Part shown: positions 3,579 to 48,920 of the stretch, in pieces | Position numbering within the stretch: the stretch's first letter is position 1 | Layout: each line of letters begins with the position of its first letter | Assembly (NCBI GenBank): GCA_963792945.1 | Contig: CAWBYM010000017.1 | Location: 313,717 to 377,716 of the forward strand | Length of the DNA stretch: 64,000 nt | Source of the DNA: an uncultured delta proteobacterium | Lineage (GTDB): Bacteria; Desulfobacterota; Desulfobacteria; Desulfobacterales; SG8-13 | Direction: 5' to 3' | The notes under the pieces: model-generated | The model's input: the letters and a program-made list of their open reading frames with translations, nothing else | Database searches by the model: none | What the model was told of the DNA's origin: nothing | Made by a program: the position numbers and the translations under genes

Positions 3579-6104
3579 ATGTTTGGCAGTATCCTTACCA
3601 AAGTTTTCGGCAGTAAGAACGAGCGGGAATTGAAAAAACTGCAGCCCGCTGTTGATCAGATTAATGCCTTGGAATCTGATTTCAGATCCCTTAGTGACGC
3701 TCAATTAAGGGAGCAGACCCAGAAGTTCAAGGATCGCCTTAATAATGGTGAAACCTTCGACGATTTGCTGCCCGAGGCGTTTGCCGCTGTCCGAGAAGCC
3801 TCACGCCGGGTTCTCGATATGCGCCATTTCGACGTGCAGTTGATCGGTGGCATGGTGCTGCATCAGGGAAAGATATCTGAAATGAAGACCGGTGAAGGGA
3901 AAACCCTTGTTGCCACCTTACCGGCCTATCTTAACGCATTGACCGGCAAAGGGGTGCACATTATCACCGTCAACGACTACCTGGCCCGGCGCGACACCGA
4001 GTGGATGGGGCACATATTCACCTTTTTGGGCCTGACCGTCGGTACAATCGTCCACGGGTTAGATGATGGCGAACGTAAAAGGGCGTATGAAGCCGACATC
4101 ACTTACGGGACCAATAACGAATTCGGTTTCGACTATCTTCGGGACAATATGAAGTTCGACCGAGCGACACTGGTGCAGAAAGATCTCCACTTTGCCATCG
4201 TCGACGAGGTTGACAGCATCCTGATCGACGAGGCCCGCACGCCGTTGATCATTTCAGGACCGGCGGAAAAATCGACCGATCTCTATTACCGGGTCAACAA
4301 CATCATCCCCAGCCTCACCAAGGAAAAGGACTATACCATCGACGAAAAAGCCCGTGCGGTGACGCTGACGGAGGACGGCGTAGCAAGGGCCGAAAAGCTG
4401 ATGCAGGTCAGCAATCTCTACGACCCCAAGAACATCGAGTTGCTGCACCATATCAACCAAGGGCTCAAGGCCAACACGCTTTTCAAGCGCGATGTCGACT
4501 ACATCGTCAAAAATGGCGAGGTCATCATCGTCGATGAATTCACCGGCCGCCTGATGCCGGGGCGAAGATACAGCGAGGGATTGCATCAGGCACTGGAAGC
4601 TAAGGAGGGCGTCAAGATAGAAAACGAAAACCAGACCCTCGCCACGATTACGTTCCAGAACTACTTCCGGATGTATGACAAGCTGGCCGGTATGACCGGT
4701 ACAGCCGATACGGAAGCGGCTGAATTCAAGAAAATCTACGACCTCGATGTAGTGGTGGTGCCGACTGACAAACCGATGGTCCGCAAAGACAACCCAGACC
4801 TCATATACAAGACCCGCCGGGAGAAATTCAATGCCGTGATCGATGAGATCGATGCGCTCAACAAGAAGGGCCAGCCCGTTCTGGTTGGCACCGTTTCCAT
4901 AGACGTATCGGAGCAGGTCAGCACTCAATTGAAAAAAAGAGGGATCAAACACGAGGTTCTCAACGCCAAGAACCACGAGAAGGAAGCTGAAATCATCACC
5001 ATGGCCGGTCAGAAAGGCGCTGTAACCATTTCCACCAACATGGCCGGGCGTGGCACGGACATCGTTCTCGGGGAGGGGGTCACGGATCTCGGTGGCCTGC
5101 ACATCATCGGTACGGAAAGGCACGAAAGCCGGCGGATCGACAATCAGCTCAGGGGGCGTTCCGGACGACAGGGCGATCCGGGCTCATCGCGCTTTTATCT
5201 CGCGCTGGAGGATGACCTGTTACGAATTTTCGGTGGAGATCGTATCACCGGGATCATGGACAGGCTCGGGATGGAGGAGGGCGAGCCGATCGAACACAAT
5301 CTGATCAGCCGGGCGATCGAAAACGCCCAGTCGAAAGTGGAGGGCCGCAACTTTGAGATCCGCAAGCAGCTGCTGGAATATGATGACGTCATGAACCAGC
5401 AACGCGAGGTCATTTACCGCCAGCGCCGGGAAGCCCTCTTCGGCAAAGACCTCAAAGACTCGATACTCGATATCATCGAGGAAAAAGCCGAGGAGATCGC
5501 CGAAGTATTCGCCGACGAACGGATTCCGGCCGAGGAATGGGATATCAAAGGCCTGAACGAGTCCGTCTTCAAACAGTTCAACCTGCGGTTGCCGCCCATG
5601 GATGCCGACACCCTCGACGGACTCAATAGCGAGGGCCTGGCCCAGCTCATAACGGACGAGGCCGTTGCAATTTACGAAGAAAGAGAACGGGCAATCGGTG
5701 GGGCGGATTTTCGCCAGCTCGAACGCATCGTCATGCTCCAGACGGTAGACAACCTTTGGAAAGATCACCTGCTCTCCATGGATCATCTCAAAGAGGGCAT
5801 TGGGTTGCGGGGATATGCCCAACAGAATCCGCTCTTGGTTTACAAGAAAGAGGGATTCGATATGTTTCAGGACATGATCGCCCGGATCAAGGAAGAAACC
5901 CTCGGAATACTTTTCAGGGTCCAGCTCGCCGAGCCACAGGAAATAAGGGAAATCCAAAAACCCCGCGAGCAACAGCTGACCTATTCCGGCTCGGGGGAGC
6001 CGGCGAAAAAAAAGCCGGTCCAGAGGGCCGCCGACAAGGTTGGACGCAATGCGCCTTGTCCGTGCGGCAGTGGAAAGAAATTCAAAAAATGCTGCGGTCG
6101 ATAG
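3579..6104 (+). CDS. secA: preprotein translocase ATPase SecA
   Basis: Canonical N-terminus [20 protein letters not shown] at ATG 3579, with AGGAGG at 3561-3566. MKTGEGKT Walker A, and the C-terminal zinc motif [14 protein letters not shown]. The 81 upstream codons of the track ORF have no SecA similarity. Confidence 0.95.
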
Positions 6105-6425
6105 GGGCACTGGCAAATGGATTTCCCAGTGGACGCTCCCCATCGGGCGTGATATCATATGGTTATACCCGTGCCGTGCTGTCCCGAATCTGCCGCCCGA
6201 TCGAATTTGGCGGCTGACCTTTACAAGATTCGATCCAAGTGCTTATATTGAACCCATCTTCGCTTGGGAAGCCTGACAGCGGGGCATGAGTCAAGGCGGG
6301 TCAGCGGATCGACGCCATCTGTTTTACTGCCCAAAAGGCCGGTGCGCTCTGGTTTACCTGGCAACCGCTGCCATGCGAAGCCACACACCTGCTAAATTTG
6401 ACCAATGCGTATTCTGGAAAATTGA

Positions 6426-6734
6426 ATGAGCGAGTATCTTCCCGAAATAGAGGGAGAGATGTCATCGGAAACCGATGTGACCGAGCCGTCTCTTTATCGG
6501 GTGCTGCTTCTCAACGATGATTACACGACCATGGAATTCGTGATCGAAATCCTCAAAATCGTGTTCCGCAAATCGGTCGACGAGGCCACCCGAATCATGC
6601 TCAATGTTCATCAGGCGGGTGCTGGTCTATGCGGTATATTTACCTTTGAAATTGCTGAAACAAAAGTGGACACTGTTCACTCTCTGGCAAGAGAGAACGG
6701 TTTTCCGCTCAAATGTACCATGGAGAAAGAGTAA
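6426..6734 (+). CDS. clpS: ATP-dependent Clp protease adaptor ClpS
   Basis: LYRVLLLNDDYTTMEFVIEIL and MLNVHQAGAGLCG are hallmark ClpS segments. The gene ends 3 nt before clpA. Confidence 0.9.
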   Translation: MSEYLPEIEGEMSSETDVTEPSLYRVLLLNDDYTTMEFVIEILKIVFRKSVDEATRIMLNVHQAGAGLCGIFTFEIAETKVDTVHSLARENGFPLKCTMEKE

Positions 6735-6737
6735 GTC

Positions 6738-8972
6738 ATGATAAGCAAAGAACTGAGCGTCACCTTGGGCCTAGCTGTGCGTGAAGCAAAAAAGCGGCGC
6801 CATGAGTACGTTTGTGTCGAACACATCCTTTTCGCTATTTTGTACGATAGTGTCGGTATAGAAATCATAGAAAGTTGCGGCGGCAACGTGGAGAACATGA
6901 ACCGGTCGCTGGAGGAATTTTTCAACGAAAAGTTGGAGCGGGTTGCCGAAGGGACCGAGTATGTGTTGCAGCAGACCATCGCATTTCAGAGGGTCATACA
7001 GCGCGCAGTGAACCATGTCCGCTCTGCCGAAAAGCAGGAGGTCGAGGTCAGCGATATTCTCGCGTCAATCTTCCTGGAGAAAGATTCGCATGCGGCTTTC
7101 ATTCTGCAGGGAGAGGGGGTCACTCGCCTGGATGTGTTGAATTACATCTCGCATGAAGTGCCGAAGACCCCGTATGAAGAAGAGGAGTCCGGCGGATTCT
7201 CCAAAACCGAACGCAGGGACAAGAAAAAGAAGGGGGATCCGCTGGAAATGTTTACAGTGGATCTGGTCAAGATGGCCGCAGACGGTAAATTGGACCCGCT
7301 CATCGGTCGTGAGCTCGAAATGGAAAGAACCATGCAGGTCCTCTGCCGGAGGAGAAAGAACAACCCTGTTTTTGTGGGTGATCCGGGAGTGGGCAAAACG
7401 GCCATGGCTGAAGGCTTGGCCCAGAAAATCAACGATGGATCCGTGCCCGATATTCTCAGTGATGTGCGCATCTACTCGTTGGATCTCGGCGGCATGTTGG
7501 CCGGCACCAAATTCCGCGGAGATTTCGAGCAGAGACTCAAAGGGGTCATTCAGGCGCTTCAGCGGCTGCCCAAAGCGATCCTCTTCATCGACGAGATCCA
7601 TACGATCGTCGGTGCCGGTGCTACAAGCAGCGGCTCAATGGACGCATCCAACATTCTAAAGCCTGTGCTGGCCACCGGGGATATACGCTGCATCGGTTCG
7701 ACCACTTACGAAGAGTACAAAAACCATTTCGAAAAAGACCGCGCCCTGTCGCGCCGCTTCGAAAAAATCGAGATCAGCGAGCCGCCGGTCAAGGAAACCA
7801 TTCAGATCCTCAAGGGGCTCAAGTCCCGCTATGAAGACCACCATGGCATCGTCTACACCGACCAGGCCATCAAGTCGGCTGCAGAGTTGAGCGCAAAGTT
7901 CCTCAATGACCGCTACCTGCCGGACAAGGCCATCGATGTCATCGACGAGGCCGGGGCTTATATACGACTCGCCGGTTCTTCGCGACGAAAGTACATCAAC
8001 CCGGCGGACATTGAAAAGATCATCGCCAAAATGGCCCGGATTCCCACCCGCAGTGTGTCGACATCGGACCGCAACAAACTTGAAAACCTTGACGACGAAT
8101 TGAAATCGGTCGTCTTCGGTCAGGACGAGGCCATCCAATCGCTGGTGACGGCCATCAAGCGGTCACGGGCGGGGTTGGGAACACCTGGGAAACCCGTTGG
8201 CTCCTTCCTGTTTACCGGACCCACCGGTGTCGGCAAAACGGAGGTATCCCGCCAGTTGGCGCGCATACTCGGTGTCGAATTCCTGCGATTCGACATGAGC
8301 GAATACATGGAAAAGCACACCGTGGCCCGCCTGATCGGCGCCCCGCCGGGATACATCGGCTTCGATCAGGGCGGTTTGCTGACCGATGGGATTCGCAAGC
8401 ACCCATACAGCATCCTCCTTTTGGATGAGATCGAAAAAGCCCATCCAGACCTGTTCAACATCCTCCTGCAGGTCATGGACCATGCCACATTGACCGACAA
8501 CAACGGCAAAAAGGCCGATTTCCGCAACGTGATCATCATTATGACTTCCAACGCTGGTTCGCGTGAAATGACCGGCCGTTCCATCGGTTTCGGTGACGGT
8601 GTCAAGGATGCCGAACACAAAGGCCAGAAGGCGATCGAGGGGCTGTTCAGCCCCGAATTCAGGAACCGACTGGATGCCACCATCTCCTTTCACGCACTGA
8701 CGGTCGAAATCATGAAATTGATCGTGGACAAATTCATCCAGGAGCTCAACGAGCAGCTGGCTGCCAGGAAGGTGGTTCTGACCATTACGTCCGATGTGCG
8801 GACATGGTTGGCGGAAAAGGGATATGACCCCACTTACGGCGCCCGACCCCTCGGGCGCTTGATCCAGTCTGAAATCAAGGATGGACTGTCGGATGAAATT
8901 CTTTTCGGCCGTTTGAGCCGCGGCGGATCCATCACGGTCGGTCTCGAGGAAGACAAACTGGTTTTCGTCTGA
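6738..8972 (+). CDS. clpA: ATP-dependent Clp protease ATP-binding subunit ClpA
   Basis: Two AAA+ modules (GDPGVGKT and GPTGVGKT Walker A). It has a Clp N-domain and lacks the long middle coiled coil of ClpB. Length is 744 aa. Confidence 0.9.
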
Positions 8973-9812: not shown

Positions 9813-10169
9813 AGACCGCCGATGAACGGCAAGCCAACGCCCTTTCCACTGCTTGACAAGGCTACGCGGCAGGCGCTAAGAAGTTTTCGTTTACGATTGG
9901 TTCCGTTCCGCCGTTTCGGCGTCGATCAGCGGAACCGGTTGGGCCGTGTCGGTGAGGGCACCACCACGCAACGCGTTGAATTAATCATCATGCTTGAATG
10001 AAATCGCGGTTTTCTGGAACCCTGACTCGATCGTGCCATCAACTGTTCGTTGAAGGGTAAGTCCTGTTTGACCCTATCCGGATGGACATGAAGACCATGT
10101 GCGTTGAGCGTCTGGCGCCGGGCGCCTTCGAAAAAATTGACAGGTTAACTATGAGGGGGGAAAAGACAC

Positions 10170-10508
10170 ATGGAGGATGAGTGCATTTTTTGCAATATCA
10201 CTGCGGGCAAAACCGACACCCGGTTCTTGTTCGAAGACGACCGCCTGGTCGTGTTCAAAGACATCAACCCTCATGCTCCGGTTCATGACTTGATCGTTCC
10301 GCGTCGCCACATCCGCAGCATCAACGATTTGACCGATCAAGACGGCGACATCATCTCCAATATGATCATGGCCGGACGTCATATGGCCAAACAACACCGG
10401 ATCGACGCCAGCGGATACAAACTGGTTTACAATGTGGAATGGGGCGGCGGGCAACGCATATTTCACCTGCATCTGCACATGATAGGCGGGTGGGACAAAC
10501 AGAAATAG
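10170..10508 (+). CDS. HIT (histidine triad) family nucleotide hydrolase
   Basis: CIFC N-terminal motif and the histidine triad HLHLHMIGG near the C-terminus. Length is 112 aa. Confidence 0.85.
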   Translation: MEDECIFCNITAGKTDTRFLFEDDRLVVFKDINPHAPVHDLIVPRRHIRSINDLTDQDGDIISNMIMAGRHMAKQHRIDASGYKLVYNVEWGGGQRIFHLHLHMIGGWDKQK

Positions 10509-10519
10509 CCGGTCGCCGC

Positions 10520-11695
10520 ATGACATCGCCTGCTGACAGATCGAACGCGAATGCCGAGATCGGGGGCCTATACATTCATGTCCCCTTTTGCATCAAAAAA
10601 TGCTTTTACTGTGACTTTTTCTCGGTTACCGATATGTCGTTGCGGTCCCGGTACGTGGCGGCCCTGCTCGATGAATTGAAATGGGCCGCTACCGCTTACG
10701 CCGGTATGCGGTTCGACACCCTCTATCTGGGCGGCGGCACTCCGTCTGTGCTGGAGACCGATGCCCTCGGCCGCATCGTTGCTTCAGCGTTCAGTGCCTT
10801 TACGGTCCTGCCGGGAGCAGAGGTCACGGTCGAGGTCAACCCCGCGACGGCCGATCGCGACAGCCTGCGCCGCTACCGAACGGCAGGCGTCAATCGGATC
10901 AATATCGGCGTACAGAGCTTTCAGAATCAAAACCTTGCATTCCTGGGGCGAATTCATTCGGCCGCGGACGCTGTAAAGACCTTGGAGTGGGCCCAAACAG
11001 CCGGCTTCGAAAACATCGGCATCGATCTGATTTACGGCATCCCGGGCCAAACGGAGGCCACATGGCGGCAGGACCTCGACAGGGCCGCCGCCCATCGGCC
11101 GGAGCACTTGTCCTGCTATACCCTCACTTACGAGAAAGGGACGCCTCTGACTGGCGAGTTGTCGCGAGGAACAGTCATACCGGCTACTGACGAGCAGGTC
11201 GCGCAACTTTATCTGACGACCGTAGAGGTCCTGGCACAAAAGGGGTACGAACAGTACGAAACGTCCAATTTTGCACGCTCCGCCGCCCACCGGTCGCGCC
11301 ACAACGGCAAATACTGGTCTTTTGCACCCTACTTGGGACTGGGGCCTTCATCTCATTCCTTCCTTCCACCCGAGCGTCTCTGGAACAAAGCGGATCTGGC
11401 GGCCTATTTGGCAGATGTGGAACAGGGGCGGCGACCCGTCGCGGGCCGGGAGAGCCTGACCCGCGATCAATTAATGATCGAGGCCGTCTATCTCGGCCTG
11501 CGGCTGATCGACGGGATTGATGTCGCCGGCTTTGAAAGCCGCTTCAAAGTCAAATTCGAGTCACTGTTCAACAGGCCGCTCACGGTTTTTGCCGATCAGG
11601 GCCTGTTGGAGACATCCGGTTGGCGCTGCCGCTTAACCCCCCGAGGCATGCTTTTGCTCGACACCATCGCCTCGTCTTTCGTCGACGAGTTTTAA
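10520..11695 (+). CDS. hemW: radical SAM heme chaperone / oxygen-independent coproporphyrinogen oxidase-like protein (HemW/HemN family)
   Basis: LYIHVPFCIKKCFYCDF (CxxxCxxC radical-SAM cluster) with a HemN C-terminal-like domain. I chose ATG 10520; the track ORF (10439) overlaps the HIT gene. Confidence 0.8.
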   Translation: MTSPADRSNANAEIGGLYIHVPFCIKKCFYCDFFSVTDMSLRSRYVAALLDELKWAATAYAGMRFDTLYLGGGTPSVLETDALGRIVASAFSAFTVLPGAEVTVEVNPATADRDSLRRYRTAGVNRINIGVQSFQNQNLAFLGRIHSAADAVKTLEWAQTAGFENIGIDLIYGIPGQTEATWRQDLDRAAAHRPEHLSCYTLTYEKGTPLTGELSRGTVIPATDEQVAQLYLTTVEVLAQKGYEQYETSNFARSAAHRSRHNGKYWSFAPYLGLGPSSHSFLPPERLWNKADLAAYLADVEQGRRPVAGRESLTRDQLMIEAVYLGLRLIDGIDVAGFESRFKVKFESLFNRPLTVFADQGLLETSGWRCRLTPRGMLLLDTIASSFVDEF

Positions 11696-13605
11696 CCGGC
11701 TTTACGAAGCTTGCGGATGTCACCGATGCGGATGGTGACGTTCTGAGAATCGAAGTATTCGATCAGGGGAATGACATACTTGCGGGAGGCGCCGGTCATG
11801 TCCTTGAACTGTGGCGTCGATATTTCACCATGGACCAGTAGAAAATCGACCAGTTGCTGCCTGAGGCTTTTGAGGGTGTCCGCGTCGAAGTAAAGATCTT
11901 CTTTTACCTTGACCAGGCGGCCATCTTCCACTAGCAGCAAAAGAACATCCTTGGCCTGTCGGGCGTCGGTATTCAGTTCTTTGCTGATTTCTTTGAAGTA
12001 CGGCGGTTGGAGTTTGGTTTCTCCATAGGTTTTGAGGATCTTGTCGCGAATGCCTTCCTGGTCGGCCTCGAGCGCAACCTTGTGTGATGATAGGTGGACG
12101 GTGTCTTCCGCAACGGTGATTTCTTCCTCCTTGAGCATCTGGTTCATCAGCAGATTGAACAGCTTGGGGTTCATGCGCTTCGGCAGTTTGGTCTTCAGCT
12201 CCTCTTTCGGCATGCCTGCCTTCAGCGGATAATTCTTGTGATAGTCTTCCAGATGGGCTTTCACGCTGAGGCGAAGGTCCTGGAAACTGTTGTTGTGGAT
12301 GTATATACGGTTGTCCCGGTCAACGAGCAGAACGTTTTTCTTTGAAAGCAGCCCCTGCAGCATCTGGTCCAGTGTTTTCTCCGCCAGGTTGGTCATCAGG
12401 ATCGCATCGGAGAAGGAGGCGCCGATGTGGCCGGACTGCTCGATAGTGTAAGCGGCCAGATCTTCCGGCGCCTTGTCTGGAATATCCAGCAGAGCCTGCA
12501 CGGTTTCCGGTTTGAAGCGTTTGTGTTTGAGCGGTATCGGGTTGAGAATCAGACCGCCGCCGATGGTGCGGACCGGGGAGTAGCTTCGGATAACGAAACG
12601 GTCGTCCTTCACCAGAGAGACCGGCACATCGAGGCGCAGTTGAACGGCGGTCTGCTCGCCGGGCTTCAACTCTTCGCGATCCAAAAGGACCAGGTTGCCC
12701 AATATCTCACTGGTGCCGGTGTGAAAACGGATCCGGGTGCGGTTTTTTGCCGGCTTTTTGTTGCTCGACAGGTACTGCAGCTGCACGTCGACCATGTAGC
12801 TCGGTTTGAGCGTTCCGGGGAAAGCCAGAACCTCACCCCGGTTGATCGATTCTTTCTCCAATCCCTGGAAATTGATGGCCGTGCGCTGGCCGGCTTCGGC
12901 GGTTTCAACGCTCCGGCTGTGAACTTGAATGCCGCGAACCTTGGAAGTGATCAGCGAGGGATAGATCATGATCGTGTCGCCGGTCTGCACCCGGCCGGAA
13001 ACCAGAGAACCGGTGATCACCGTTCCGAATCCCTTCATGGTGAATACCCGGTCCACCGGCAGGCGGAACAGGCTCGATTTACCGCGCTCCGGAATCTCGT
13101 CGCATATGTCCTCCAGGGTGCGGACGAAATCCTGAAGCCCCCGTCCCTTGACCGCTGAAACGGGAACGATGGGTGATCCATCCAGGAAAGTTCCGGAGGT
13201 AAAATCCCGCACATCTTCCATGGCCAATTCCAGCCACTCCTCGTCCACGAGGTCGGTTTTGGTCAGCACCACGAAGCCGTGTTTGATGCCCAGAAGCGTA
13301 CAGATTTCCATATGCTCGCGGGTCTGGGGCATGACGCCTTCATCGGCGGCGATCACCATGGCCACGATGTCGATGCCGGTAGCGCCGGCGACCATGTTTT
13401 TGACGAATTTCTCGTGACCCGGTACGTCAACGATGCCCACATGCTGGCCGCCGGGCAGGTCCAGGGCGGCGAATCCCAGCTCGATGGTGATCCCGCGTTC
13501 TTTTTCTTCTTTCAAGCGGTCGGTATCGGTACCGGTGACGGCTTTGATCAGCGAGGTCTTACCGTGATCGATATGTCCGGCCGTGCCGAGGATGATCTGT
13601 TTCAA
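11692..13605 (-). CDS. selB: selenocysteine-specific translation elongation factor SelB
   Basis: N-terminus [27 protein letters not shown] and the TKTD G-motifs. The long C-terminal extension (637 aa total) fits the SECIS-binding winged-helix domains. TTG start with AGGAG 8 nt upstream. Confidence 0.9.
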
Positions 13606-13743
13606 TGCACACGCTCCTGATTCTGTTCGAATCCTTACGTCCGGTTTCGTTTTGCCCTGGTGTTTCTTCTATTGTTGCCATTTTTCATTAGCCACCAACA
13701 GGTTAACCCGGCCGCTCCGGCATCCATTCGGCGAAAATCAGGC

Positions 13744-13917
13744 TCAACGCTTTTTGCGGTTGCGCAGGTATTCCGCGAAATAGGCCAGCCCAACCAGAAT
13801 GCCCGCCAAACCGATGATTTTGGGCAGCGACACCTGACCGTACCACATCCGGGTGGCCAGAACGGCAAAAACGAGCCCGAGTATCGCCCTGATGACGAAT
13901 CGTTGAAAACCGACCAC
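13744..13917 (-). CDS. small two-helix membrane protein, 57 aa (absent from the ORF track)
   Basis: My own translation from GTG 13917 is VVGFQRFVIRAILGLVFAVLATRMWYGQVSLPKIIGLAGILVGLAYFAEYLRNRKKR. It shows two hydrophobic helices and a basic tail. AAAGGA lies 7 nt upstream. It sits upstream of selB on the same strand. Confidence 0.35.
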   Translation of the reverse strand: MVGFQRFVIRAILGLVFAVLATRMWYGQVSLPKIIGLAGILVGLAYFAEYLRNRKKR

Positions 13918-14050
13918 ATCCGTATCCTTTCAGATGTTTGAGAGTGTAAAGCTTCATCTATAGCCACCCGTTACTCTATCGTCAATACTCTTTTGACTTT
14001 CCACTTGCAATGGTAGGGGAGATCTGATAGTTTGACATGGTTACAATATG

Positions 14051-14126
14051 GTGGGTGTAGCTCAGGTGGTAGAGCGCCAGGTTGTGGCCCTGGTGGTCGT
14101 GGGTTCAAGTCCCATCACTCACCCCA
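14051..14126 (+). tRNA. tRNA-His (anticodon GTG)
   Basis: Cloverleaf traced by hand. There is an extra 5' G(-1) opposite the discriminator C. Acceptor GTGGGTG/CACTCAC, anticodon arm CCAGG-TTGTGGC-CCTGG, T-arm GTGGG-TTCAAGT-CCCAT, and an encoded CCA. Confidence 0.9.
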
Positions 14127-14296
14127 AAACACCATGCCCAAAAAGCCTCCATGAAACATTCATTTTCGTTCACTCACTGAAAAGGCGACAGATTGAATAA
14201 CAGATTTACGGAAGTGTTTTTTTCTGCTAAGATCTGGACCCTAAGCCTGCACAAAAGATGATCGATAACCCCGTTGAAACGATGAAGGCTTTTTTT

Positions 14297-14373
<77 letters not shown>

Positions 14374-14483
14374 ATAAGCCAATAACCAATAAATAGATGC
14401 CGGTGACAGGTGCGGAAAAATCAATATACCTGTTTTCTAATGATTTCGTCAGAATTCGGACAAGGGGCAGGTTGTGACATCTG

Positions 14484-14510
14484 GCGGGCTCGAATCCAGC
14501 CGGGATACCC
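14484..14510 (+). other. degenerate duplicate of the tRNA-Arg 3' end (T-arm + acceptor strand)
   Basis: GCGGGCTCGAATCCAGCCGGGATACCC compared with tRNA-Arg GCAGGTTCGAATCCTGCCGGGCGTACCA. The copy lies 138 nt downstream of its counterpart. Most positions match if one gap is allowed. Confidence 0.5.
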
Positions 14511-15433
14511 TAAATATATAATATAAAATACCAACTAAGGTCAGAGGAGGTGTCTCTGGCGCAAAGTACCATCTAACGCGGTGATCTCATCTCGAACCGC
14601 ATCCACGTAACATTGCCAATCCACAACAACAGGAGGCGCAGAATGAAGAGCAAGAGGAACCATCTTATCGTGTTCTTGATTGTCAGCGGGCTGTTTTTTT
14701 TCTCAGGGGTCACCGCCAGTGCGGATTGCCCCGCGGACCTCATCTCTTATTGGCCACTCAATGAAACAATTCCGGGACTCTATGCCGATGCGCTGAATGT
14801 CAGCACGGGCGTCAGCGTCGGCCCCAACGATCCGGTACCGACCGACGGCATCGTTTACGGGGCGCAGTTGTTTGATGGAAGTTCGAACCGGAGTCGATGC
14901 GGCCGCGAACACCAGTCTATGATTTTGGTTCCGAGGACAGTTTCACTCTTGCCGTATGGATGAAGATCGATGCCGGTCTGGGTACTGGTGAGGTCGAAGT
15001 GATGCTCGGCCGTGAGATAGCACTACCGGCGCGACATTATTGGGTGGGAATTATGGAGGTCTCGGGCGATACCGTTGCGGCTGCATTTTTAAGATCCCAA
15101 AGCGGTGAAGACGATACCGACATCAATGGGACTACCTACCTGACCGACGGCGACTGGCATTATATCGTCTTTGTCAGGAACAATGACGATAATACGAATC
15201 AAAATCTATGTGGATGGCGTCTTAGAAGACGGTCCGGCCAGGGTTCGACTTCACGACCGATTAGTGCGTTCGACGGATGGCCCATTCACCATCGGTTATT
15301 TGACGTATCCCCTTTCTACAACTTCAACGGCGCCATCGACGAGGTGGCCGTTTACGTCTGCGGCGTTGCCGCCATCTGAAATCGTGGATAATTTCAACAA
15401 CAAGGTCAATCTCTGTGGCGACACCGCTTTGAC

Positions 15434-16371
15434 ATCGGTGGTGAGCGGCGATTTCAACGGCGACGGCCGCCAAGACCTGGCCGGCGTGAGCCCGTCCGGG
15501 GAGGTCTATTATTCAACCTCTTTGGGCGCGTGGGTGAAAATCCCCGGCGTGGTGCAGAGCATCGTGGCCGGCGACTTCGACGGTGACGGCGACGACGATA
15601 TCGCGGGTATCAATCCCGCCGGGGCCATTTCCAAGGTCTTCTACACCACGAACTTAGATGCCGACGTACCCACCTGGACCGCCGATTCCGGGGTTGATCA
15701 CCTCGATCGTGGCCGGTGATTTTAACGGCGACGGTAATGACGATATCGCCGGCATCAATCCCGCCGGGGTGAGTTTCAAGGTTTTCTACACGACCGACCT
15801 GGCCACCTGGACCGGGATACCGGGTTTGATCACCTCGATCGTGGCCGGTGATTTTAACGGCGACGGTAATGACGATATCGCCGGCATCAATCCCGCCGGG
15901 GTGAGTTTCAAGGTCTTTTACACGACCAACTTAGATGTTCCCGTACCGACTTGGACCGGGATACCGGGGTTGATCACCTCGATCACGACCGGCGATTTCA
16001 ACGACGACGGCAACGACGATATTGCCGGCATCAATCCCGACGGCGTGATTTCCAAGATCTTCTACACGACCAATTTGGCCACCTGGACGCCGGTTCCGGG
16101 TTTGATCACCTCGATCGTGGCCGGCGATTTCGACGGCGACGGTGTTGTTGACGATATTGCCGGCATCAACCCCGCCGGAGTGAGTTTCAAGGCCTTTTAC
16201 ACGACCGACCTGGCCAACTGGACCGGGATACCGACGGTGAATCCGGGTTCACTCGACACGATCACGGCCGGTGACTTCGATGCGGACGGCGTAGACGATC
16301 TGGCCGGCGTCAACAGTATGGACGAGGCCTATTACACGCTCAATTTTGCCGACTGGACATACATTCCTTGA
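15434..16371 (+). repeat. seven tandem FG-GAP-like coding repeats (about 41-50 aa each)
   Basis: Recurring S(I/V)VAGDF(N/D)GDG.DDIAGINP.G...K.FYTT.L..WT.IPGLIT units. Seven copies fit a 7-bladed beta-propeller. Confidence 0.8.
15688..15914 (+). repeat. two 95-bp near-identical direct repeats, 132-bp period
   Basis: 15688-15782 and 15820-15914 both read ccggg(g/t)ttgatcacctcgatcgtggccggtgattttaacggcgacggtaatgacgatatcgccggcatcaatcccgccggggtgagtttcaaggt. I saw one mismatch. Confidence 0.85.
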
Positions 16372-16400
16372 GCGTCTGTTTCACCGTCCGTAAAGCATGA

Positions 16401-16440
16401 CAAACAATAAAGGGGAGCCAATGCTCCCCTTTATTGTTTG
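16401..16440 (+). terminator. strong hairpin terminator after the LamG/FG-GAP gene
   Basis: Perfect 18-bp stem caaacaataaaggggagc / gctcccctttattgtttg with loop caat, 30 nt after the stop. The T-rich 3' arm could act in both directions. Confidence 0.65.
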
Positions 16441-16665
16441 ATTGATCGGTCGTTTGTCGGCCGCTGGATCTTCTGTAGACAACCGAATCAAGGTTGAATA
16501 GATACGTTAGAGGGCACTTGCTTTTAGGGGCGCGTCGCCCGACCCGTCGATTCGACGGGTTGCCGAGTGTTTCGGGATTGTTTAGGGGGGAACATCGACA
16601 TTTCAAGAGGTTAGGAACGCCGCATCTTTGTCTAACCCCAGGCTATATTTTTGGGTCAGGCCAGT

Positions 16666-17727
16666 ATGGAATCTAAACCGCTGCCGGTTTCACCAAATGA
16701 AAAGGATCGTCCCGTCAAAACGATTGTCGCCGTGGTCATTCCGTGTTTTCGGGTGTCGCGCACGATTGTTGCCGTTGTCCGGCAGGTCCTGCAAGAAAAT
16801 ATCGTTTCGATGATTTTTTGTGTCGACGACGCCTGCCCGGAAAACAGCGGCAGCCTTGTTCAAGACGTTTTCTCTCGTGAACCTCGGGTGGCGGTCATCC
16901 GCTTGCCGCACAACCTCGGCGTCGGCGGAGCGACCAAAGCCGGCTACACGGCGGCCATGGAGGCCGGCGCGGACATCATCGTAAAATTAGACGGCGACGG
17001 CCAGATGGCACCGCACCACATAGCCGATCTCATCACCCCGATAATCCGTGGCGAGGCGGACTATGTCAAAGGAAACCGCTTTTTCAGCCTGACGTCCCTG
17101 ACCGCCATGCCTTTCATCAGAAAAATCGGCAACGCCGGCCTGTCGTTTTTCAGCAAGCTGTCTTCCGGGTATTGGGACCTCTTCGATCCAACAAACGGTT
17201 ACACGGCCATCGAGGCACGGGTGGCAGTCCAGATCCCATTTGACAAAGTCCACAACCGGTTTTTTTTCGAGCAAGATGTTCTCTTCAGGCTGAGCATTAT
17301 CCGCGCCCGTGTGGCCGAATTGCCGTTGCCGGCCATTTATGGCGACGAAGAAAGCAATCTCAGCGTTGTGCAGGCTTTTATCCGTTTTCCGATTTACCAT
17401 GCCATCAACTGCGGTAAACGGATTTTCTATAACTATTTTTTACGCAATTTCTCCCTCGCATCCATCAGCCTAATCCTGGGGATTCTGTTTCTGATGACCG
17501 GTCTCGGCTTCGGCGCCTATCACTGGGCGATGTCGATCATAACCGAACGGGCCGCCACCGCCGGCACGGTCATGCTGGCGGCCCTGCCGATAATTTTGGG
17601 CATTCAGTTCTTGTTGAATTTCCTGGCCTACGATATGGCGATGGTCCCCAGAGAGGCGGTTCATCCGAAACTGCCGTTGGTGAAAACGATGGAAAACGCA
17701 TCGATTCCCAATGGCAAGGTCCCCTGA
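16666..17727 (+). CDS. family 2 glycosyltransferase with C-terminal transmembrane helices (polyprenyl-phosphate sugar synthase-like, GtrB/ArnC type)
   Basis: VVIPCFRVS, VDDACPENSG and KLDGDGQM (DxD-like) motifs, plus two C-terminal hydrophobic helices (ISLILGILFLMTGLGFGAY, VMLAALPIILGIQFLLNFLAY). An alternative start is TTG 16651. Confidence 0.8.
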   Translation: MESKPLPVSPNEKDRPVKTIVAVVIPCFRVSRTIVAVVRQVLQENIVSMIFCVDDACPENSGSLVQDVFSREPRVAVIRLPHNLGVGGATKAGYTAAMEAGADIIVKLDGDGQMAPHHIADLITPIIRGEADYVKGNRFFSLTSLTAMPFIRKIGNAGLSFFSKLSSGYWDLFDPTNGYTAIEARVAVQIPFDKVHNRFFFEQDVLFRLSIIRARVAELPLPAIYGDEESNLSVVQAFIRFPIYHAINCGKRIFYNYFLRNFSLASISLILGILFLMTGLGFGAYHWAMSIITERAATAGTVMLAALPIILGIQFLLNFLAYDMAMVPREAVHPKLPLVKTMENASIPNGKVP

Positions 17728-17775
17728 ACGATGCCACGGATGCGGCGGAAAAAAAGGGGTCATCCGCTTAGGTGC

Positions 17776-19761
17776 TCACGGACGCCTAATCCAGATCGCA
17801 TAGAAAACGGTTTCCGAGCGTGTGTATCCGTTTGATTCGAGCCAGGAAGATATGTCCTGGCAGTCCTCGGCAGCCGAGTTGTTAAAGAGCACCACCGCCT
17901 TCAATTCTCTGTCCTTCAGCTCCTGAACCAGCCAGTCGACATCCTCGGGACTTGCGCAACCGGCATCAGCCATTTGGCCGAGCCCGAGCCTCTTCTTTAC
18001 TTCCGCTTCACCAAAGTGCCACTGGAGGTGGTGTAAATAATGCGGCCTCACGTAAAGCAGCCGGGGATAATTTTCATAACCGGTCAAAACAGAAGCGACA
18101 ACTTCCGGAGCCAAAACCAGATCATTGAGGGTGGTCTGTTGCAGCACAATTTCTGCAACCTCTTTGATGTATGGATTCACCTTAGGACCAGGCCCATCAA
18201 AAAATACCTGGTTCGAGGGTGAAAGACTCCAACGCCCGGCAAAGAGAAAAACCGCCAGAACCGATGCAAGGGCAGTGATCCAGAATGTTTTTATTTTTGC
18301 ACGGCTATCCGGATGCAGATAGATTGTTTCCGCGGCCAGACCGAATCCAGCGCCAATAAAAAGAGGGAGGGGCACAGCCCAGAACAGGCGCCAGGAGAAC
18401 ACACCGGAAACGAGTCGGCCGGCCCAATCGGTGGTCAAGCCATTGAAGAGAAGGACGACCGCTACAAAGACGTAGCGCCACATCCAGAACCGGTAGGGAT
18501 GGTTTTGGCGCAGCATGATCAGCGGCAGGAGCAAGAACAGCAGCAGCGCAATGGTCCCCCTGGCGCCGCTGCCGATAACATAGTAAACGTTCAAGAGCTC
18601 AGCCTGGTCTGCCACGCCGGGATTGGCATGGCGATCGCTCAAGACCCAAAGCAAAATCAGGCCGCAATACAGAAAGGTAGCGGTTCCCGCCAGAGCCGGA
18701 ATCAACCGCTTTTTGGACACGCCGGCAGACGCGAACAAGGCCATAAGGACCGCCAAGGGGGCGACGACAGCCGCCGTGGTCGACATACCCACCGAAGCGA
18801 TTTGCACCAACAGGAGCCGGCACCACGTTTTCCAAAACGGTTTTTCCATGAATGCCAGTGTATAATGGACCAGCAATGGGCATAGAAGGGCAACGAAGAC
18901 GGCTTTGGCCTGAAACAGACGCACGAACGCAAAGTTGCCAAACGCCAGGTGGCTCTCCCCCCATGCGCACAGTACCAGCAGGGCGATGGGCAGTGCCAGC
19001 CATGCCGATCGGATACAGAATCGCTTGATGACCACAAAGTAAGAGAGAGGCACCAGGGCCCCCCAAAATGGGGGCAGCAGCACATAATAAAGTGTTCGCG
19101 GGGAGAGTCCCGTCCATGTGGACAACAAGGAAATAAGTAGCATGTAGGTTTGCGGCCTATGGTCGGGTTGCTGGATCGGAATTTGGGGGTCGCCATGCAT
19201 CCCGTCGAAACTCAGAAGCGGAAGGTCCGAATGCCTCAATGTGGCAATGGCCTCGTTCAGAAAATAAGCGTCGTCCAAATCGGGACGATTGACCATCAGC
19301 GTTACGCCTGCCGTCATGGCCATAACCGTCAGCAGAACAACAGAATCAAAGCGCGGGTCGACGGACGCCCTTTTGCCTGTCCCGCGCACAAAGAAAGATC
19401 GGTCCCAGTTGGAGATCCAGCCCAGGTAAACCAATGCCAGCCCGGCGACCAGCCAGAGCTGCTTTGAAAAAACAGCTGCCCCTAAACAAAATACCGGTAC
19501 CCAAGGGGCCTTGCAATTTTTGTGATTATACGGATGAACCTCACCCTTGACCGCCCCCTCCCGTTCTGGCTGTTTGAGTGCCAATGCCCAAATCAAGCAG
19601 GGAAGTATAAGCAGGAGAGCAGGGGCCCATGAAACGAACAGGTCAAAACTGAGTCCCGAAAAGGTAAAAACCTGGGTAAAGAGTGTCCACGCTCCCAGTG
19701 CAAGGATAACGGAATTCAATAATGTTTCGGACCAGGCATTTTTGGATGGAATGGCGTCCAT
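17776..19761 (-). CDS. large polytopic membrane protein, 661 aa, with a soluble C-terminal domain; possible GT-C-type glycosyltransferase (function inferred only)
   Basis: At least 12 hydrophobic segments run through the first ~520 aa, followed by a ~130-aa hydrophilic C-terminus. GGAGA precedes the ATG. It is convergent with the GT2 gene, with a 48-nt gap. Confidence 0.7.
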   Translation of the reverse strand: MDAIPSKNAWSETLLNSVILALGAWTLFTQVFTFSGLSFDLFVSWAPALLLILPCLIWALALKQPEREGAVKGEVHPYNHKNCKAPWVPVFCLGAAVFSKQLWLVAGLALVYLGWISNWDRSFFVRGTGKRASVDPRFDSVVLLTVMAMTAGVTLMVNRPDLDDAYFLNEAIATLRHSDLPLLSFDGMHGDPQIPIQQPDHRPQTYMLLISLLSTWTGLSPRTLYYVLLPPFWGALVPLSYFVVIKRFCIRSAWLALPIALLVLCAWGESHLAFGNFAFVRLFQAKAVFVALLCPLLVHYTLAFMEKPFWKTWCRLLLVQIASVGMSTTAAVVAPLAVLMALFASAGVSKKRLIPALAGTATFLYCGLILLWVLSDRHANPGVADQAELLNVYYVIGSGARGTIALLLFLLLPLIMLRQNHPYRFWMWRYVFVAVVLLFNGLTTDWAGRLVSGVFSWRLFWAVPLPLFIGAGFGLAAETIYLHPDSRAKIKTFWITALASVLAVFLFAGRWSLSPSNQVFFDGPGPKVNPYIKEVAEIVLQQTTLNDLVLAPEVVASVLTGYENYPRLLYVRPHYLHHLQWHFGEAEVKKRLGLGQMADAGCASPEDVDWLVQELKDRELKAVVLFNNSAAEDCQDISSWLESNGYTRSETVFYAIWIRRP

Positions 19762-20100
19762 TCTCCGTTGGTGTCCCTTTTATACCGATATAGGCAAGAG
19801 GATAAAAAATGACTCAAAAACATGAAAAGTATGACATAAAACGTTTAGGTGAGGTATGAATTATGGATTATTGAATTGATATTACAGTAATTTACGGTTA
19901 AAAAATTCTGGTATATAAATTGCTTTTGTACCAACACTATCTTTGTGATCATATTTTAAAATGAATAAACCGTCCATAGGAAAGGAGGGCCTTTGTTGGC
20001 GGAATTTCGACGGTTTTCAGTACCGGAATCTGTTTTCCGGACCCCTGAAACAGGATAGATCGGCCGTCGCCCCGTCCGATTGGTGGTATGTTTGCCGTCA

Positions 20101-20284
20101 ATTAGTGCCCATCCATGAATAGTGGATGGCACAATGGTGTGTCCAATTTATAAATGAGAATTTTTTTCGCTGGGCAAGGCCGCACAAGGGTTTGCGGCGA
20201 GGCGTACTTTATGTACGCCGCAGCCGGAAACCTGCGGAGAACGCCGGCCAGTGGAAAAAAGGCCATTTATGGATGGACACTAAT
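20101..20284. repeat. ~184-bp imperfect palindromic / multi-hairpin element in the AT-rich spacer
   Basis: Outer inverted repeat attagtgcccatcca (20101-20115) / tggatggacactaat (20270-20284). Nested arms are gtgtcca...ataaatg...ttttttcgctgg versus ccagtggaaaaaa..catttat..tggacac. The GC-rich core contains hairpins ccgca/tgcgg, ggcgtac/gtacgcc and gccgg/ccggc. Confidence 0.6.
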
Positions 20285-20527
20285 TAGGCCGATGTGATGG
20301 ATGCGAGTCAGGATCGATGGGCCGAATTTCATTAAAGTTGGCGTGAAATCACCATACATTGGCATGAAAAGCCAAGCATTATGCAGCATCTGCCTTATCG
20401 TATGGTCAACCTTGATACAGTTGTTCAAAACGTTTTTCGCTGTGCCGAGGACCTACAGCGAGGAGCCGATTCGATAAGATAGGCAGAAGCGAGGTTGGGT
20501 TAAGGCCCGACAAAAATAAAATTACCA

Positions 20528-20556
20528 TTGATAGTTTGTTGCTAAATGATTAAAAT
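20528..20556 (+). promoter_or_regulatory. sigma70-like promoter candidate for the SGNH-PKD gene
   Basis: TTGATA (20528-20533), 17-nt spacer, TAAAAT (20551-20556), about 50 nt upstream of ATG 20606. Confidence 0.5.
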
Positions 20557-20605
20557 GTGCGAAATTTTTTTGGTTGAATTGTAAACTTTAAAGAGACAGA
20601 CAATT

Positions 20606-22016
20606 ATGAAGGTTATCAAATCACTGATTATACTGACGGCGGTACTTATGGCGGCAAACGTCATGGCCGCCCCGATTCGCATCATGCCGCTGGGAGACTC
20701 GATCACTGAGGGAATCGGTACATTCTCAACCACAAACAGGGCCTATCGCCGCGCGCTCTACTTGGAGTTGGTAAACTCCGGCTATAACGTGAATTTCGTA
20801 GGGAACCGACCCCCCGCCGGCATTCCCACCGATTTCGACCGCAACCATCAGGGGGAGGGTGGCATTCGAGACGATCAGGTTGCGACTGATGTCATTAACT
20901 GGTTGAACCAGAATCCGGCGGACATCATTTTGCTTCACATTGGCACCAACGGCATGGAGGATCCCGGCGGTGAGAGTTCAGCCGATGTCGAAAACATTTT
21001 AGACAACATCGACACATGGGAGTCATCGATAAACGGGCGATCTGTCATCGTCATTTTGGCGAGGATCATCAACCGGAGCTGCCGTACCGATCCAACACCA
21101 TGCCTTGAGAGTTCGACGACGACGCAGTTCAACAACAATGTTGCGGCCATGGCCCAAACGCGCATCAGTGGAGGGGATCGCATCATTGTTGTAGACATGG
21201 AGAACAGCGCCGGGATCGACTATCGGTTGTCGGCCGTTGGCGGGGATATGGCCGATGATCTGCATCCAGACGACAACGGATTTGGACTTATTGCCGACAA
21301 GTGGTTCGATACATTGCTGACCGCCGTTTTGCCGCAAGCCGATGCCGGCATCGATCAGACCGTCGACGAAAACACGACCGTCACGCTTGACGGATCTCTG
21401 TCTTCCGATCCCGATGGCACCCTGACGTACCTGTGGTTACAGCTGTCGGGGACACCCGTCACCCTCTCCAGCACTGCGGCAGTGAAACCCACTTTTACGG
21501 CCCCTGAAATCGGGCCGGGTGCCGCTGAACGGCTGACATTCCGGCTGACTGTAACCGACAACGACGGGTTCGAACATCAGGATTCCGTTTTCGTCGACGT
21601 GAACAACACCCTGTCCGCCCCGGTGGCCGACGCCGGACCGGATCAGAGCGCGGTGGCCGGAGATACCGTTACCCTGAATGGTTCCGCGAGCGACCCTGAT
21701 GGTGGCGCCATCATTGACACCTTATGGACGCAAGTGTCGGGGACTCCCCTGGTTTCGCTCTCAACCCCCGGCAGTCTGACAACGAGTTTCGTTGCCCCAA
21801 CCGTCGCAAACAGTGGAGAGGTGCTCAGACTTTAAACTGACGGTTACAGACGAAGATAACCTGACAGGCGAGGCTTTCGTCAACGTGACGATCACCAACG
21901 TCGCCCAGGTTATTACCCCCCCCCCAACGAATGGCGGTGGCGGCGGCGGTGGGTGTTTTATTCAGACGGCTGCCAATCCCCTGAAGGGCTTGATGAAATG
22001 GTTGAGCACCAATTGA
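20606..22016 (+). pseudogene. secreted SGNH/GDSL hydrolase + two PKD-like Ig domains + Gly-rich CFIxTAA tail, with one frameshift near 21830
   Basis: Signal peptide MKVIKSLIILTAVLMAANVMAA and the SGNH block I motif PLGDSITEG. Two ~90-aa repeats follow (DAG.DQ.V....TVTL.GS.S.DPDG ... L.F.LTVTD.D). The frame changes at agaCtttaaa (EVLR | FKLTVTDEDN). The C-terminus is TPPPTNGGGGGGGCFIQTAANPLKGLMKWLSTN. Confidence 0.7.
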
Positions 22017-22435
22017 CGGCCATAAAAAGCCGTTAGCGGGCCAGCGGCCAGGAAGGGTATCGTTCCGTTCCGACCACCCCGGTGGATTTCAAGGACCCGC
22101 TCGTCATTCTGTGGCAGGGCGCGCTTCCTGCCCCGCTAATCCATTTAAGGGAAGACGATTTCAATTTGATGATCCGACAAAACTGCTCTTATCGCGCCCC
22201 TCATTCGGCTGTCAAATTTTCCAGAATACGATCTACGGTGCCCCGGGCAGCGGCGACCACAACGAAATCGATTGCCAGGGTGAAGCCCACCTGAGCATGG
22301 GTATGACAACGTGCTTTCCCGGATAAGGCCGGGGCCGCAATTGGCTTCTACCGGGGAGGCGGCCGCGGGCGTTTGGCCTGCTGCGGCACTGCGGAACGGA
22401 GTGGAACAGTGGCTAAGGCCGAGTCCCGAAAGCGC

Positions 22436-23122
22436 ATGAAGCCTCACCCCAGCTATGAAGAATACGAATCAAAATGGGTGAGTCTCTACAACACGCTGAA
22501 CTATGGATCTTCGCTGTCGAGCCGATTACTGCACCACAGCCATGTGCTGGCCGAGAAAAAGTTCGAAAGCAAGCAGCATTTACGCCGGGTATTGGAGGTC
22601 GGTGCCGGGACCGGGGCCCACTTGGAGTGTGTGCGCCACGCTTTCGACGAGTACGTCATCACCGATCTGCGCTATGACATGCTAGAAAGGGCAAAGAGCC
22701 AATATGCGGGGCGGTTCACAAATCGAGTGTCTTTCAAACAGGAGAACGCGGCCAAGCTGTCGTTTGAAGACGGCAGGTTCGATCGCCTGATTGCCATTCA
22801 TGTTCTGGAACATCTGAGCGATCCACATATGGTGTTGGCTGAATGGGCCCGAGTGGTCTCTCCGGGAGGGATCGTGACCATTGTCTTGCCTTGCGATCCG
22901 GGGTTACTCTGGCGGATGGGCCGATATTTCGGGCCGCGGCGAAATGCTACGAAGCATGGTTTGGAGTACGATTACTGGATGGCTCGTGAGCATATCAATT
23001 CGGCATACAATTTAATCCACCTCATACGATTTTATTTTGACCGGCTGAACGAAGCGTGGTTCCCCGTGCCGGTACCGAGCGTTGATTTGAATCTCTTTTA
23101 TATCGTCCACATCACGGTTTGA
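22436..23122 (+). CDS. class I SAM-dependent methyltransferase
   Basis: Motif I VLEVGAGTGAHL and the post-I/II segments FDRLIAIHVLEHLSDP and PGGIVTIVLP. I chose ATG 22436; the track ORF begins at 22373. Confidence 0.75.
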   Translation: MKPHPSYEEYESKWVSLYNTLNYGSSLSSRLLHHSHVLAEKKFESKQHLRRVLEVGAGTGAHLECVRHAFDEYVITDLRYDMLERAKSQYAGRFTNRVSFKQENAAKLSFEDGRFDRLIAIHVLEHLSDPHMVLAEWARVVSPGGIVTIVLPCDPGLLWRMGRYFGPRRNATKHGLEYDYWMAREHINSAYNLIHLIRFYFDRLNEAWFPVPVPSVDLNLFYIVHITV

Positions 23123-23191
23123 CGCTGGGGAAAGTGTTATTTTCCAAAAATCAAAATCAAATGACATGGCGGTTCCTATCAGCCAGGCCGC

Positions 23192-44471: not shown

Positions 44472-44567
44472 CCGTAGCTCTTTTTTTAAATTTAAATTTG
44501 AATTGTCGATTCATTTTGCTATTCTGCGCCATTTGGTTTCTCCAACCCGCCCCTTGAGGAAGAAAAA

Positions 44568-45767: not shown

Positions 45768-45770
45768 TTC

Positions 45771-48700: not shown

Positions 48701-48920
48701 TATCCTGGGCGTGCTCCCACTGGTGATCGCCACCGGTGCGGGCGCCAACAGCCGACAGGCCATCGGCACCACGGTGTTCAGCGGTATGCTGGCGGCAACC
48801 CTGGTCGGTATCTTTCTGATTCCGTCACTCTATGCCGCCTTTCAGACGTCAAGGGAAAAAGTCTACGATCGGAGGAGACGGAGGCGGGCCCAAGAGCGCG
48901 CTCGAGAGAGAAAGACTTAA
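45771..48920 (+). CDS. RND multidrug efflux permease (AcrB/MexB family)
   Basis: 1049 aa. N-terminus [24 protein letters not shown], and 12-TM architecture with two large periplasmic loops. Confidence 0.9.

Follow-up and report, generated by a model that had tools for sequence, protein, structure and literature searches.

The gene for a LamG and FG-GAP propeller exoprotein at 14643-16371 of the window (the whole stretch of DNA analysed here, 64 kb long) is a genuine gene, judged from its sequence to be probably functional in the organism, and its reading frame is broken by a cluster of small indels. The damage is indel-only, insertion-biased and sudden. The frame changes most likely have a technical and not a biological cause; we think it fairly probable that they are local consensus errors at a place where the alleles of different strains differ. 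Nothing at this locus requires new biology, and the finding is an ordinary one.

Gene model

No frame is open across 14643-16371 on the forward strand, where the ORF finder returns four overlapping pieces in frames 0, 2, 0 and 1. A gene on the opposite strand was dropped as a candidate, as only short repeat-derived ORFs of at most 53 aa are found there. The closest full-length relatives are unannotated metagenome proteins with 53-58% identity, among them the intact P0001 (555 aa, 58%) and P0002 (556 aa, 53%). A purpose-written, frameshift-aware dynamic-programming alignment to these two homologs threads the whole protein through the DNA along the frame path 0>1>2>0>2>0>1, which is also the path obtained by three-frame translation.

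The first-pass annotation had described a coding signal that survives frame changes along this same path, and had read it as a LamG and seven-bladed FG-GAP exoprotein. The signal is confirmed and the path is reproduced: all six shifts, as placed by comparison with the syntenic contig L033, lie at most 12 nt from the positions given in that annotation. The gene model is borne out by Pfam, by the two intact homologs and by an intact 572-aa syntenic ortholog. Two of the checks proposed at that stage, comparison with orthologs and frameshift-aware alignment together with the Laminin_G_3 and FG-GAP HMMs, gave a positive answer, i.e. the copy in L033 reads in a single frame, the segments are linked, and both domains score above their cut-offs after repair. 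The features of the gene are listed here with their coordinates, strand and basis.

14631..14636 (+): ribosome-binding site AGGAGG, 6 nt 5' of the ATG (read from the sequence)
14643..14723 (+): ATG and predicted Sec-type signal peptide MKSKRNHLIVFLIVSGLFFFSGVTASA, then DCPADL (translation)
14643..14886 (+): coding segment 1, frame 0 (translation, homolog and L033 alignment)
14888..14916 (+): coding segment 2, frame 1, TGVDAAANT (between the +1 insertions 14887 and 14917)
14918..15197 (+): coding segment 3, frame 2, LamG core (homolog and L033 alignment)
15199..15300 (+): coding segment 4, net frame 0, IKIYVDG...DGPFTIGY (P0001 and L033 alignment)
15301..15357 (+): coding segment 5, frame 2, DVSPFYNFNGAIDEVAVY (after the 1-base loss at ~15300)
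15359..15682 (+): coding segment 6, frame 0, end of LamG and blades 1-2 (homolog and L033 alignment)
15684..16371 (+): coding segment 7, frame 1, with blades 3-7 and, at 16369-16371, the stop codon TGA (ORF list, homolog alignment)
14918..15395 (+): Laminin_G_3 (ConA-like lectin) domain, approximate coordinates (Pfam PF13385)
15425..16368 (+): seven FG-GAP blades (Pfam PF01839, TRF)
14860..15700 (+): strain-hypervariable patch with all 11 frame-disturbing indels (L033 alignment)
16401..16440 (+): perfect 18-bp hairpin, terminator-like, right after the stop codon (folding)

The frame-repaired protein matches Laminin_G_3 (PF13385) with 72.3 bits (Pfam cut-off 27.6, E 6e-20) over residues 92-250, corresponding to profile positions 9-150 of 151. 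The window protein passes this cut-off only after the repair, and the L033 ortholog obtains 70.9 bits. FG-GAP (PF01839) scores 106 bits in the repaired protein, with a Pfam cut-off of 22.1. These scores are far beyond chance. In the window and in L033 alike there are seven blades of the GDFxxDGxxDxAG type, each with an Asp-rich DxDxDG-type loop (GDF[ND]GDGxDDIAG, seven units read in the sequence), and at the DNA level the propeller is a tandem array with a period of ~132 bp (TRF). From these matches the predicted mature protein is a LamG beta-sandwich of the ConA-like type plus an FG-GAP propeller whose seven blades bear Ca loops. It resembles bacterial secreted LamG and FG-GAP/VCBS propeller proteins in that it passes the Pfam cut-offs and has seven blades with Asp-rich loops.

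The expression signals are intact, from the ribosome-binding site and the ATG to the predicted signal peptide and the terminator-like hairpin. Judged by eye, the signal peptide has a basic n-region, a hydrophobic core and an ASA|D motif, and it is 100% conserved in the L033 ortholog. The region upstream of the gene is also nearly identical in L033, with a single mismatch just past the ATG. The hairpin has a dG of -29.5 kcal/mol and a z of -7.2, and is left unflagged by a simple terminator scan.

Positions and kinds of the frame changes

The positions of the indels come from aligning window 9872-20096 and L033 in MAFFT. Six net shifts are located at 14887 (+1), 14917 (+1), 15198 (+1), 15300 (-1), 15358 (+1) and 15683 (+1). 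A compensated pair, 15013 (-1) and 15039 (+1), lies in coding segment 3, and three further shifts (15243, 15262 and 15272) lie inside coding segment 4. The pair and these three produce no stop, which is why the first-pass annotation missed them. Around the pair and the extra shifts, the homologous reading (DSTTGAT for the pair, FDFTTD and SAF for coding segment 4) is off the apparent frame of the window. Relative to L033 this gives a total of 11 frame-disturbing indels of 1-2 bases, together with one in-frame 12-bp insertion at 15649-15660, within coding segment 6. The "at least six" changes noticed earlier therefore hold as net shifts, and the count of frame-disturbing indels is 11.

Stop codons by themselves demand three of the six switches; the other three depend on homology, which is strong. 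The L033 counterpart of coding segment 2 is TDVDAAANS. The repaired frame contains no in-frame stop codon. About 10 of 12 small events are +1 insertions, where the 12 include one at 21830, outside the gene, that is described below. The first-pass annotation had also seen mostly insertions and one loss; the -1 exists, but its site is ~15300, in the context GGTTATT_TGAC, and not the C4 run at about 15310.

No homopolymers were found at the indel sites, where base runs are only 1-3 long, and homopolymer slippage was rejected on this ground. The sites also have no shared motif or methylation-site context. A diversity-generating retroelement target was weighed as an idea only and set aside; indels are among the differences. 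That the coding signal carries on across the shifts is the single observation in favour of a biological use of them, through programmed ribosomal frameshifting, transcriptional slippage or slipped-strand phase variation. Against it stand the number of shifts, six to eleven and in both directions, the 25-nt contexts of the sites, which have short base runs and hold no slippery X_XXY_YYZ heptamer, and the close ortholog and two distant homologs, all of which use a single frame. We give recoding and phase variation next to no probability, and consider them excluded by the site contexts and the single-frame orthologs.

The intact ortholog and the hypervariable patch

L033 (ENA ERZ25039603, contig_29838, 210 kb) is syntenic with the window, with flanks that are 94-97% identical, and it carries the intact 572-aa LamG and FG-GAP ortholog in the same place, between the GT2 gene and selB. 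All 11 indels fall inside an 840-bp patch (14860-15700), and the gene's remaining 890 bp are free of them (p ~4e-4 under uniform placement). The mismatch with L033 in the patch is ~13% (108 in 822 aligned columns), compared with 2-5% in the flanking genes, and the signal-peptide end and blades 3-7, which are 95-100% identical to L033, are free of indels. The idea that the errors are tied to a repeat-rich gene does not agree with this distribution, as the indels lie in the unique LamG part and not in the repeat-rich propeller part.

The dS to L033 is 0.16-0.31 in the patch and 0.07-0.13 in the neighbouring genes, i.e. 2-3 times higher in the patch, and the borders of the patch are sharp. Similarly, dN/dS is 0.5-1.0 in the patch and LamG core compared with 0.1-0.3 in the neighbouring genes, and reaches ~1 in codons 150-240. 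With both dS and dN/dS above those of the neighbours, the LamG core is hypervariable between strains, with alleles that predate the genome around it. The surface of the LamG domain may be under diversifying or relaxed constraint. There is no significant excess of mismatches within 8 nt of the indels (16% vs 12%, p = 0.25), and therefore a base-by-base mosaic of alleles is not demonstrated; a fine mosaic with the indels at mismatch clusters was dropped.

The high dS of the patch, its sharp borders and the compensated -1/+1 pair at 15013/15039 would also fit an import of 14860-15700 from a more distant strain through homologous recombination. In that case the frameshifts would be real and due to one event, with a donor gene that was already decayed or with a gene scrambled by patchy repair between two alleles that differ by in-frame and compensated indels. 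However, a decayed donor should bring substitutions and stops, and the window allele is instead nearer to the outgroups, with the intact ortholog further away. The donor allele was also not found in the genome contigs, in the metagenome contigs or by an allele-specific protein query, and we regard the import, with its variants taken together, as improbable.

In these searches, an exact 30-mer from the LamG core gave zero matches in the metagenome contigs, and a LamG-only profile scan of the same contigs found nothing closer than 35% identity. The sole match to a 95-aa allele-specific protein query was a fragment predicted on the 517-kb contig to which the window itself belongs. No second assembly of the window allele was found by these three queries. 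A scan of the genome contigs with the repaired protein, swamped by the generic DFDGDGDD motif, returned only relatives with at most 35% identity.

Substitutions on the broken lineage

We counted derived residues in the LamG part at the sites where the outgroups P0001 and P0002 agree, and found 3 in the window vs 12 in L033. With P0002 as the sole outgroup the numbers are 4 vs 16 (p = 0.012), and the whole-protein version of this relative-rate test, 24 vs 15, has the same direction as the LamG part. The identity of the LamG part to the outgroups is 50-51% for the window and 46-47% for L033. Derived amino-acid changes are scarcer in the broken copy than in the intact one, and the earlier statement that the former is not an old pseudogene agrees with this.

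The frame is disrupted compared with the intact orthologs (six net shifts, 11 indels vs L033), as it would be in a pseudogene, and the broken lineage has neither an excess of derived substitutions nor stop codons. With 3 derived residues vs 12 and no stop, there are thus 11 indels with almost no lineage-specific substitutions. Neutral decay in bacteria is accompanied by ~5-20 substitutions per indel and by a deletion bias; 11 indels would therefore imply roughly 50-100 substitutions on the window branch, which is more than the whole dS separating the window and L033 genomes. The background dS to L033, only 0.07-0.13, means that the time was too short for 11 indels to build up neutrally within 840 bp.

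A strain-variable island in an otherwise clean window

L034 is 96.5% identical to the window and goes from tRNA-Arg directly to the P-II/DUF1538 genes, without 14374-23140. The LamG-propeller gene is therefore part of an 8.8-kb strain-variable island, and both presence/absence and allele heterogeneity at the locus are documented in the population. The island and its other contents are given below.

14374..23140 (no strand): strain-variable island next to tRNA-Arg, holds the LamG-propeller gene (presence in L033, absence in L034)
16651-17727: GT2 glycosyltransferase (Pfam)
17776-19761 (minus): DUF6077 membrane protein (Pfam)
20606-21835: SGNH and PKD exoprotein (Pfam)
21830 (+): +1 C that shortens the SGNH-PKD exoprotein gene beside the LamG-propeller gene (L033 comparison)
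22373-23122: methyltransferase (Pfam)

The distant homolog P0002 also adjoins an SGNH-PKD gene, among sugar-nucleotide genes.

Window 7938-60478 (~52 kb) was compared with L033, L064 and L066, which are pieces of one ENA contig, and with L034 and L065, which are JGI contigs from sample 3300040801. The sole other broken ORF is the one with the +1 at 21830; once repaired, this SGNH and 2xPKD gene runs to about 22012 and encodes 469 aa. The surroundings of 21830 are almost identical between the window and L033. The -1/+1 pairs that seem to occur at 38.7-40.9 kb come from shared effects of the alignment in this segment, which is divergent and has intact ORFs, and the remaining unpaired indels are intergenic. 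A poor quality of the assembly overall was rejected, as the rest of the window is clean.

A part of these observations would agree with a real and very recent pseudogene, in which the island is dispensable, the small indels are genuine and the neighbouring SGNH-PKD gene is clipped too. L034 lacks the island, and the second island exoprotein gene has its +1 at 21830 in a sequence that is otherwise almost identical to that of L033. The window contig has no indel errors in ~50 kb of other coding DNA, which makes its consensus look reliable. The indels are not in homopolymers, and the dN/dS of the LamG core is 0.5-1.0. However, 11 indels need a long neutral period, yet the derived residues are 3 vs 12 and there is no stop, and the dS of the flanks to L033 is only about 0.1. 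The strong +1 bias is also opposite to the bacterial deletion bias, and only the hypervariable half of the gene has indels (p about 4e-4). We judge a recent pseudogene to be rather unlikely; it would need an unnatural ratio of indels to substitutions together with a bias towards insertions.

The locus can be compared with island pseudogenes in general. It is like them in having a frame disrupted relative to an intact ortholog and in lying in an accessory island beside a tRNA gene, with one relative that does not have the island. It differs in that there is no substitution excess on the broken lineage and no stop in the repaired frame, in its insertion bias instead of a deletion bias, and in the absence of larger deletions.

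Errors in sibling assemblies

The sibling contig_N assemblies come from the same population as the window. The ENA contig of L033, L064 and L066 (ERZ25039603) contains private single-base insertions that break three genes. In L033 selB is broken to 593 aa, compared with 637 aa in the window and in the JGI contig L034; the RND membrane-fusion (MFP) gene has two breaks in L066; and the SGNH-PKD gene is also broken by a private insertion in this contig. A further contig, L067 (ENA ERZ25039600, contig_64203), is 99.85% identical to window 44482-51113 and is therefore from the same strain as the window. Its three private indels all lie in the NodT gene, within 450 bp, and the other 6 kb are free of them. 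The window and the JGI contigs are intact at selB, MFP and NodT. Seven of the eight demonstrable errors in these siblings are +1 insertions, outside homopolymers and at base runs of 1-3. The sibling errors and the LamG patch have the same signature, clustering included, i.e. the damage in the patch is indel-only and looks like the proven errors of the sibling contigs, as is expected of an artefact.

The contig_N names and the contig sizes of 0.2-0.5 Mb point to a long-read assembler, and the source contig, with its 517 kb and with the same strain present in the contig_N assembly of L067, would accordingly be a product of a long-read (contig_N, Flye-style) metagenome assembly, although the platform is inferred. 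Indel-driven frameshifts are a known trait of nanopore consensus sequences (PMC9262707), and proovframe (bioRxiv 10.1101/2021.08.23.457338) is one of the tools aimed at indel frameshifts in long-read assemblies.

In the explanation that we favour, consensus error, single-base errors would have been left over in the consensus and gathered in one 840-bp patch. Co-occurring strains with alleles 13-15% apart in the patch may have supplied polishing reads of mixed alleles that gave no clean consensus, so that the patch would keep roughly raw-read quality (11 indels in 840 bp, ~1.3%). We infer the mixture of alleles as the reason for the local failure of the polishing. The first-pass annotation had listed recent inactivation, consensus errors and population heterogeneity as candidate causes and ranked heterogeneity lowest. 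Local consensus error fits best, and it does so in connection with the heterogeneity.

Compared with other long-read consensus errors, such as those in nanopore MAGs (PMC9262707), the case is alike in that the gene, whole in relatives, is split by single-base indels, that substitution decay is absent and that sibling contig_N assemblies have the same signature. It differs in how local the indels are, with 11 in 840 bp and a 64-kb window that is clean elsewhere, and in their location outside homopolymers, with a source platform that is presumed. Several observations count against consensus error. The window contig is otherwise very clean, and the indels avoid homopolymers, the classic place of nanopore errors. 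The lack of a significant mismatch excess beside the indels counts here too. The loss of the island in L034 fits relaxed selection and real decay, and dN/dS is ~1 in codons 150-240. The +1 at 21830 is in a near-identical stretch, so strain heterogeneity cannot explain that position.

Predicted fold and putative role

In the AlphaFold model of the homolog P0001 the propeller has pLDDT >90 over residues 256-555. The LamG part has poor confidence, and the alignment is only two sequences deep there. Foldseek with this model finds FG-GAP-type propellers, i.e. ITFG2 (in KICSTOR), CRTAC1, BBS proteins and integrin alpha-V. The seven-bladed propeller fold is thus seen in the model of P0001, not in one of the window protein, and it is the fold of this homolog that matches the propellers of the integrin-alpha, ITFG2 and CRTAC1 type. 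Among proteins of solved structure, two seven-bladed lectins of Photorhabdus, PLL and PHL, are nearest in sequence, with a weak similarity (E 1e-6 to 1e-4).

Among metagenome proteins the same type of propeller is fused C-terminally to many different enzyme domains, which suggests a widespread module for binding or anchoring. The whole protein may be described as a putative secreted carbohydrate- or surface-binding factor of the polysaccharide island.

In annotation, this locus is best recorded as a gene that is probably intact and encodes a presumably secreted LamG and FG-GAP propeller protein, not as an example of decay or recoding. In long-read MAGs, clusters of frameshifts can gather where strain alleles diverge, and a relative-rate test against an intact ortholog can part such artefacts from true pseudogenes without the reads. 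We consider it very improbable that the indels are real and come from a natural, insertion-biased process limited to the hypervariable LamG patch of this surface lectin gene. If they were real, an example of such a process would be recombination or repair that makes mosaics of very divergent strain alleles and scrambles the frame in one step, and it would provide a population-level mechanism for on/off switching and diversification of a strain-variable surface island. The point of biological interest is a modest one: a surface/polysaccharide island next to a tRNA gene, variable between close strains, carries a hypervariable LamG patch.

A strain-variable island beside tRNA-Arg

The LamG-propeller gene belongs to a strain-variable island, which it shares with genes for a GT2, a DUF6077 protein, an SGNH-PKD exoprotein and a methyltransferase. 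The features concerned are:

within 11692-14373, minus strand, selB (637 aa)
14051-14126, tRNA-His(GTG), after selB
14297-14373, tRNA-Arg(TCG), after tRNA-His(GTG)
14374-23140, strain-variable island of 8.8 kb, directly 3' of tRNA-Arg
16401-16440, perfect 18-bp inverted repeat, directly after the stop codon of the LamG-propeller gene
20606-22012, SGNH/GDSL + 2xPKD exoprotein gene, with an indel at 21830

Comparing close relatives, the 8.8-kb island is present in L033, the syntenic relative with an intact LamG-propeller ortholog, and wholly missing from L034, a JGI contig, where about 0.9 kb of different sequence occupies its position. No integrase was seen in the island (14374-23140), and no tRNA-Sec gene was detected between 13000 and 17000. 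The inverted repeat (dG -29.5 kcal/mol, z -7.2) is probably a terminator, possibly a bidirectional one; a simple terminator scan did not pick it up.

Blade similarity and single-base indels

At the DNA level, blades 3 and 4 of the propeller (15694-15930) are identical at 102 of 105 positions in the window, against 97 of 105 in L033. A 12-bp in-frame insertion (15649-15660) makes the linker between blades 2 and 3, NLDADVPTWT, resemble that between blades 4 and 5, NLDVPVPTWT. Because the two blades are nearly identical and the linkers alike, gene conversion between blades, or else a partial assembly collapse, is suggested. The signal-peptide coding region (GLFFFSG) contains a T8 run (14692-14699), which is the same in L033 and is free of any frame change.

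The SGNH-PKD gene is truncated by one additional C at 21830, CTCAGA[C]TTTAAA. Once this base is removed, the ORF encodes a protein of 469 aa whose C-terminus, PPPTNGGGGGGGC-FIQTAANPLKGLMKWLSTN, may be a sorting tail. In L033 the gene is interrupted at two different sites. Within this gene lies a second hypervariable patch (20950-21180), the counterpart of the one in LamG, with numerous in-frame indels and substitutions relative to L033.

Private single-base insertions also split genes in sibling ENA 'contig_N' assemblies, at places where the window and the JGI contigs are intact:

L033 (ERZ25039603), ~17800, selB
L066 (same ENA contig), 5500-6800, MFP gene, broken twice
L067 (ERZ25039600 contig_64203), 5500-7066, NodT gene

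In L067, three such errors fall inside 450 bp.

The propeller and its partner gene elsewhere

In metagenome proteins (P0003-P0067), propellers of this same type (IAGINPxG..K.FYTT.L..WT.IPG) are found C-terminal to widely differing domains, for example SGNH hydrolase, subtilase, matrixin, M4 peptidase, beta-helix pectate-lyase-like, papain-like and GH16 domains, in what looks like a common 'cargo + propeller' architecture. At the locus of P0002, a distant, intact homolog of the LamG-propeller protein, an SGNH + PKD gene again stands alongside the LamG-propeller gene, together with a LamG + VanZ gene and surrounded by sugar-nucleotide/polysaccharide genes (L032, 8446-14959). The pairing of the LamG-propeller and SGNH + PKD genes may be conserved.
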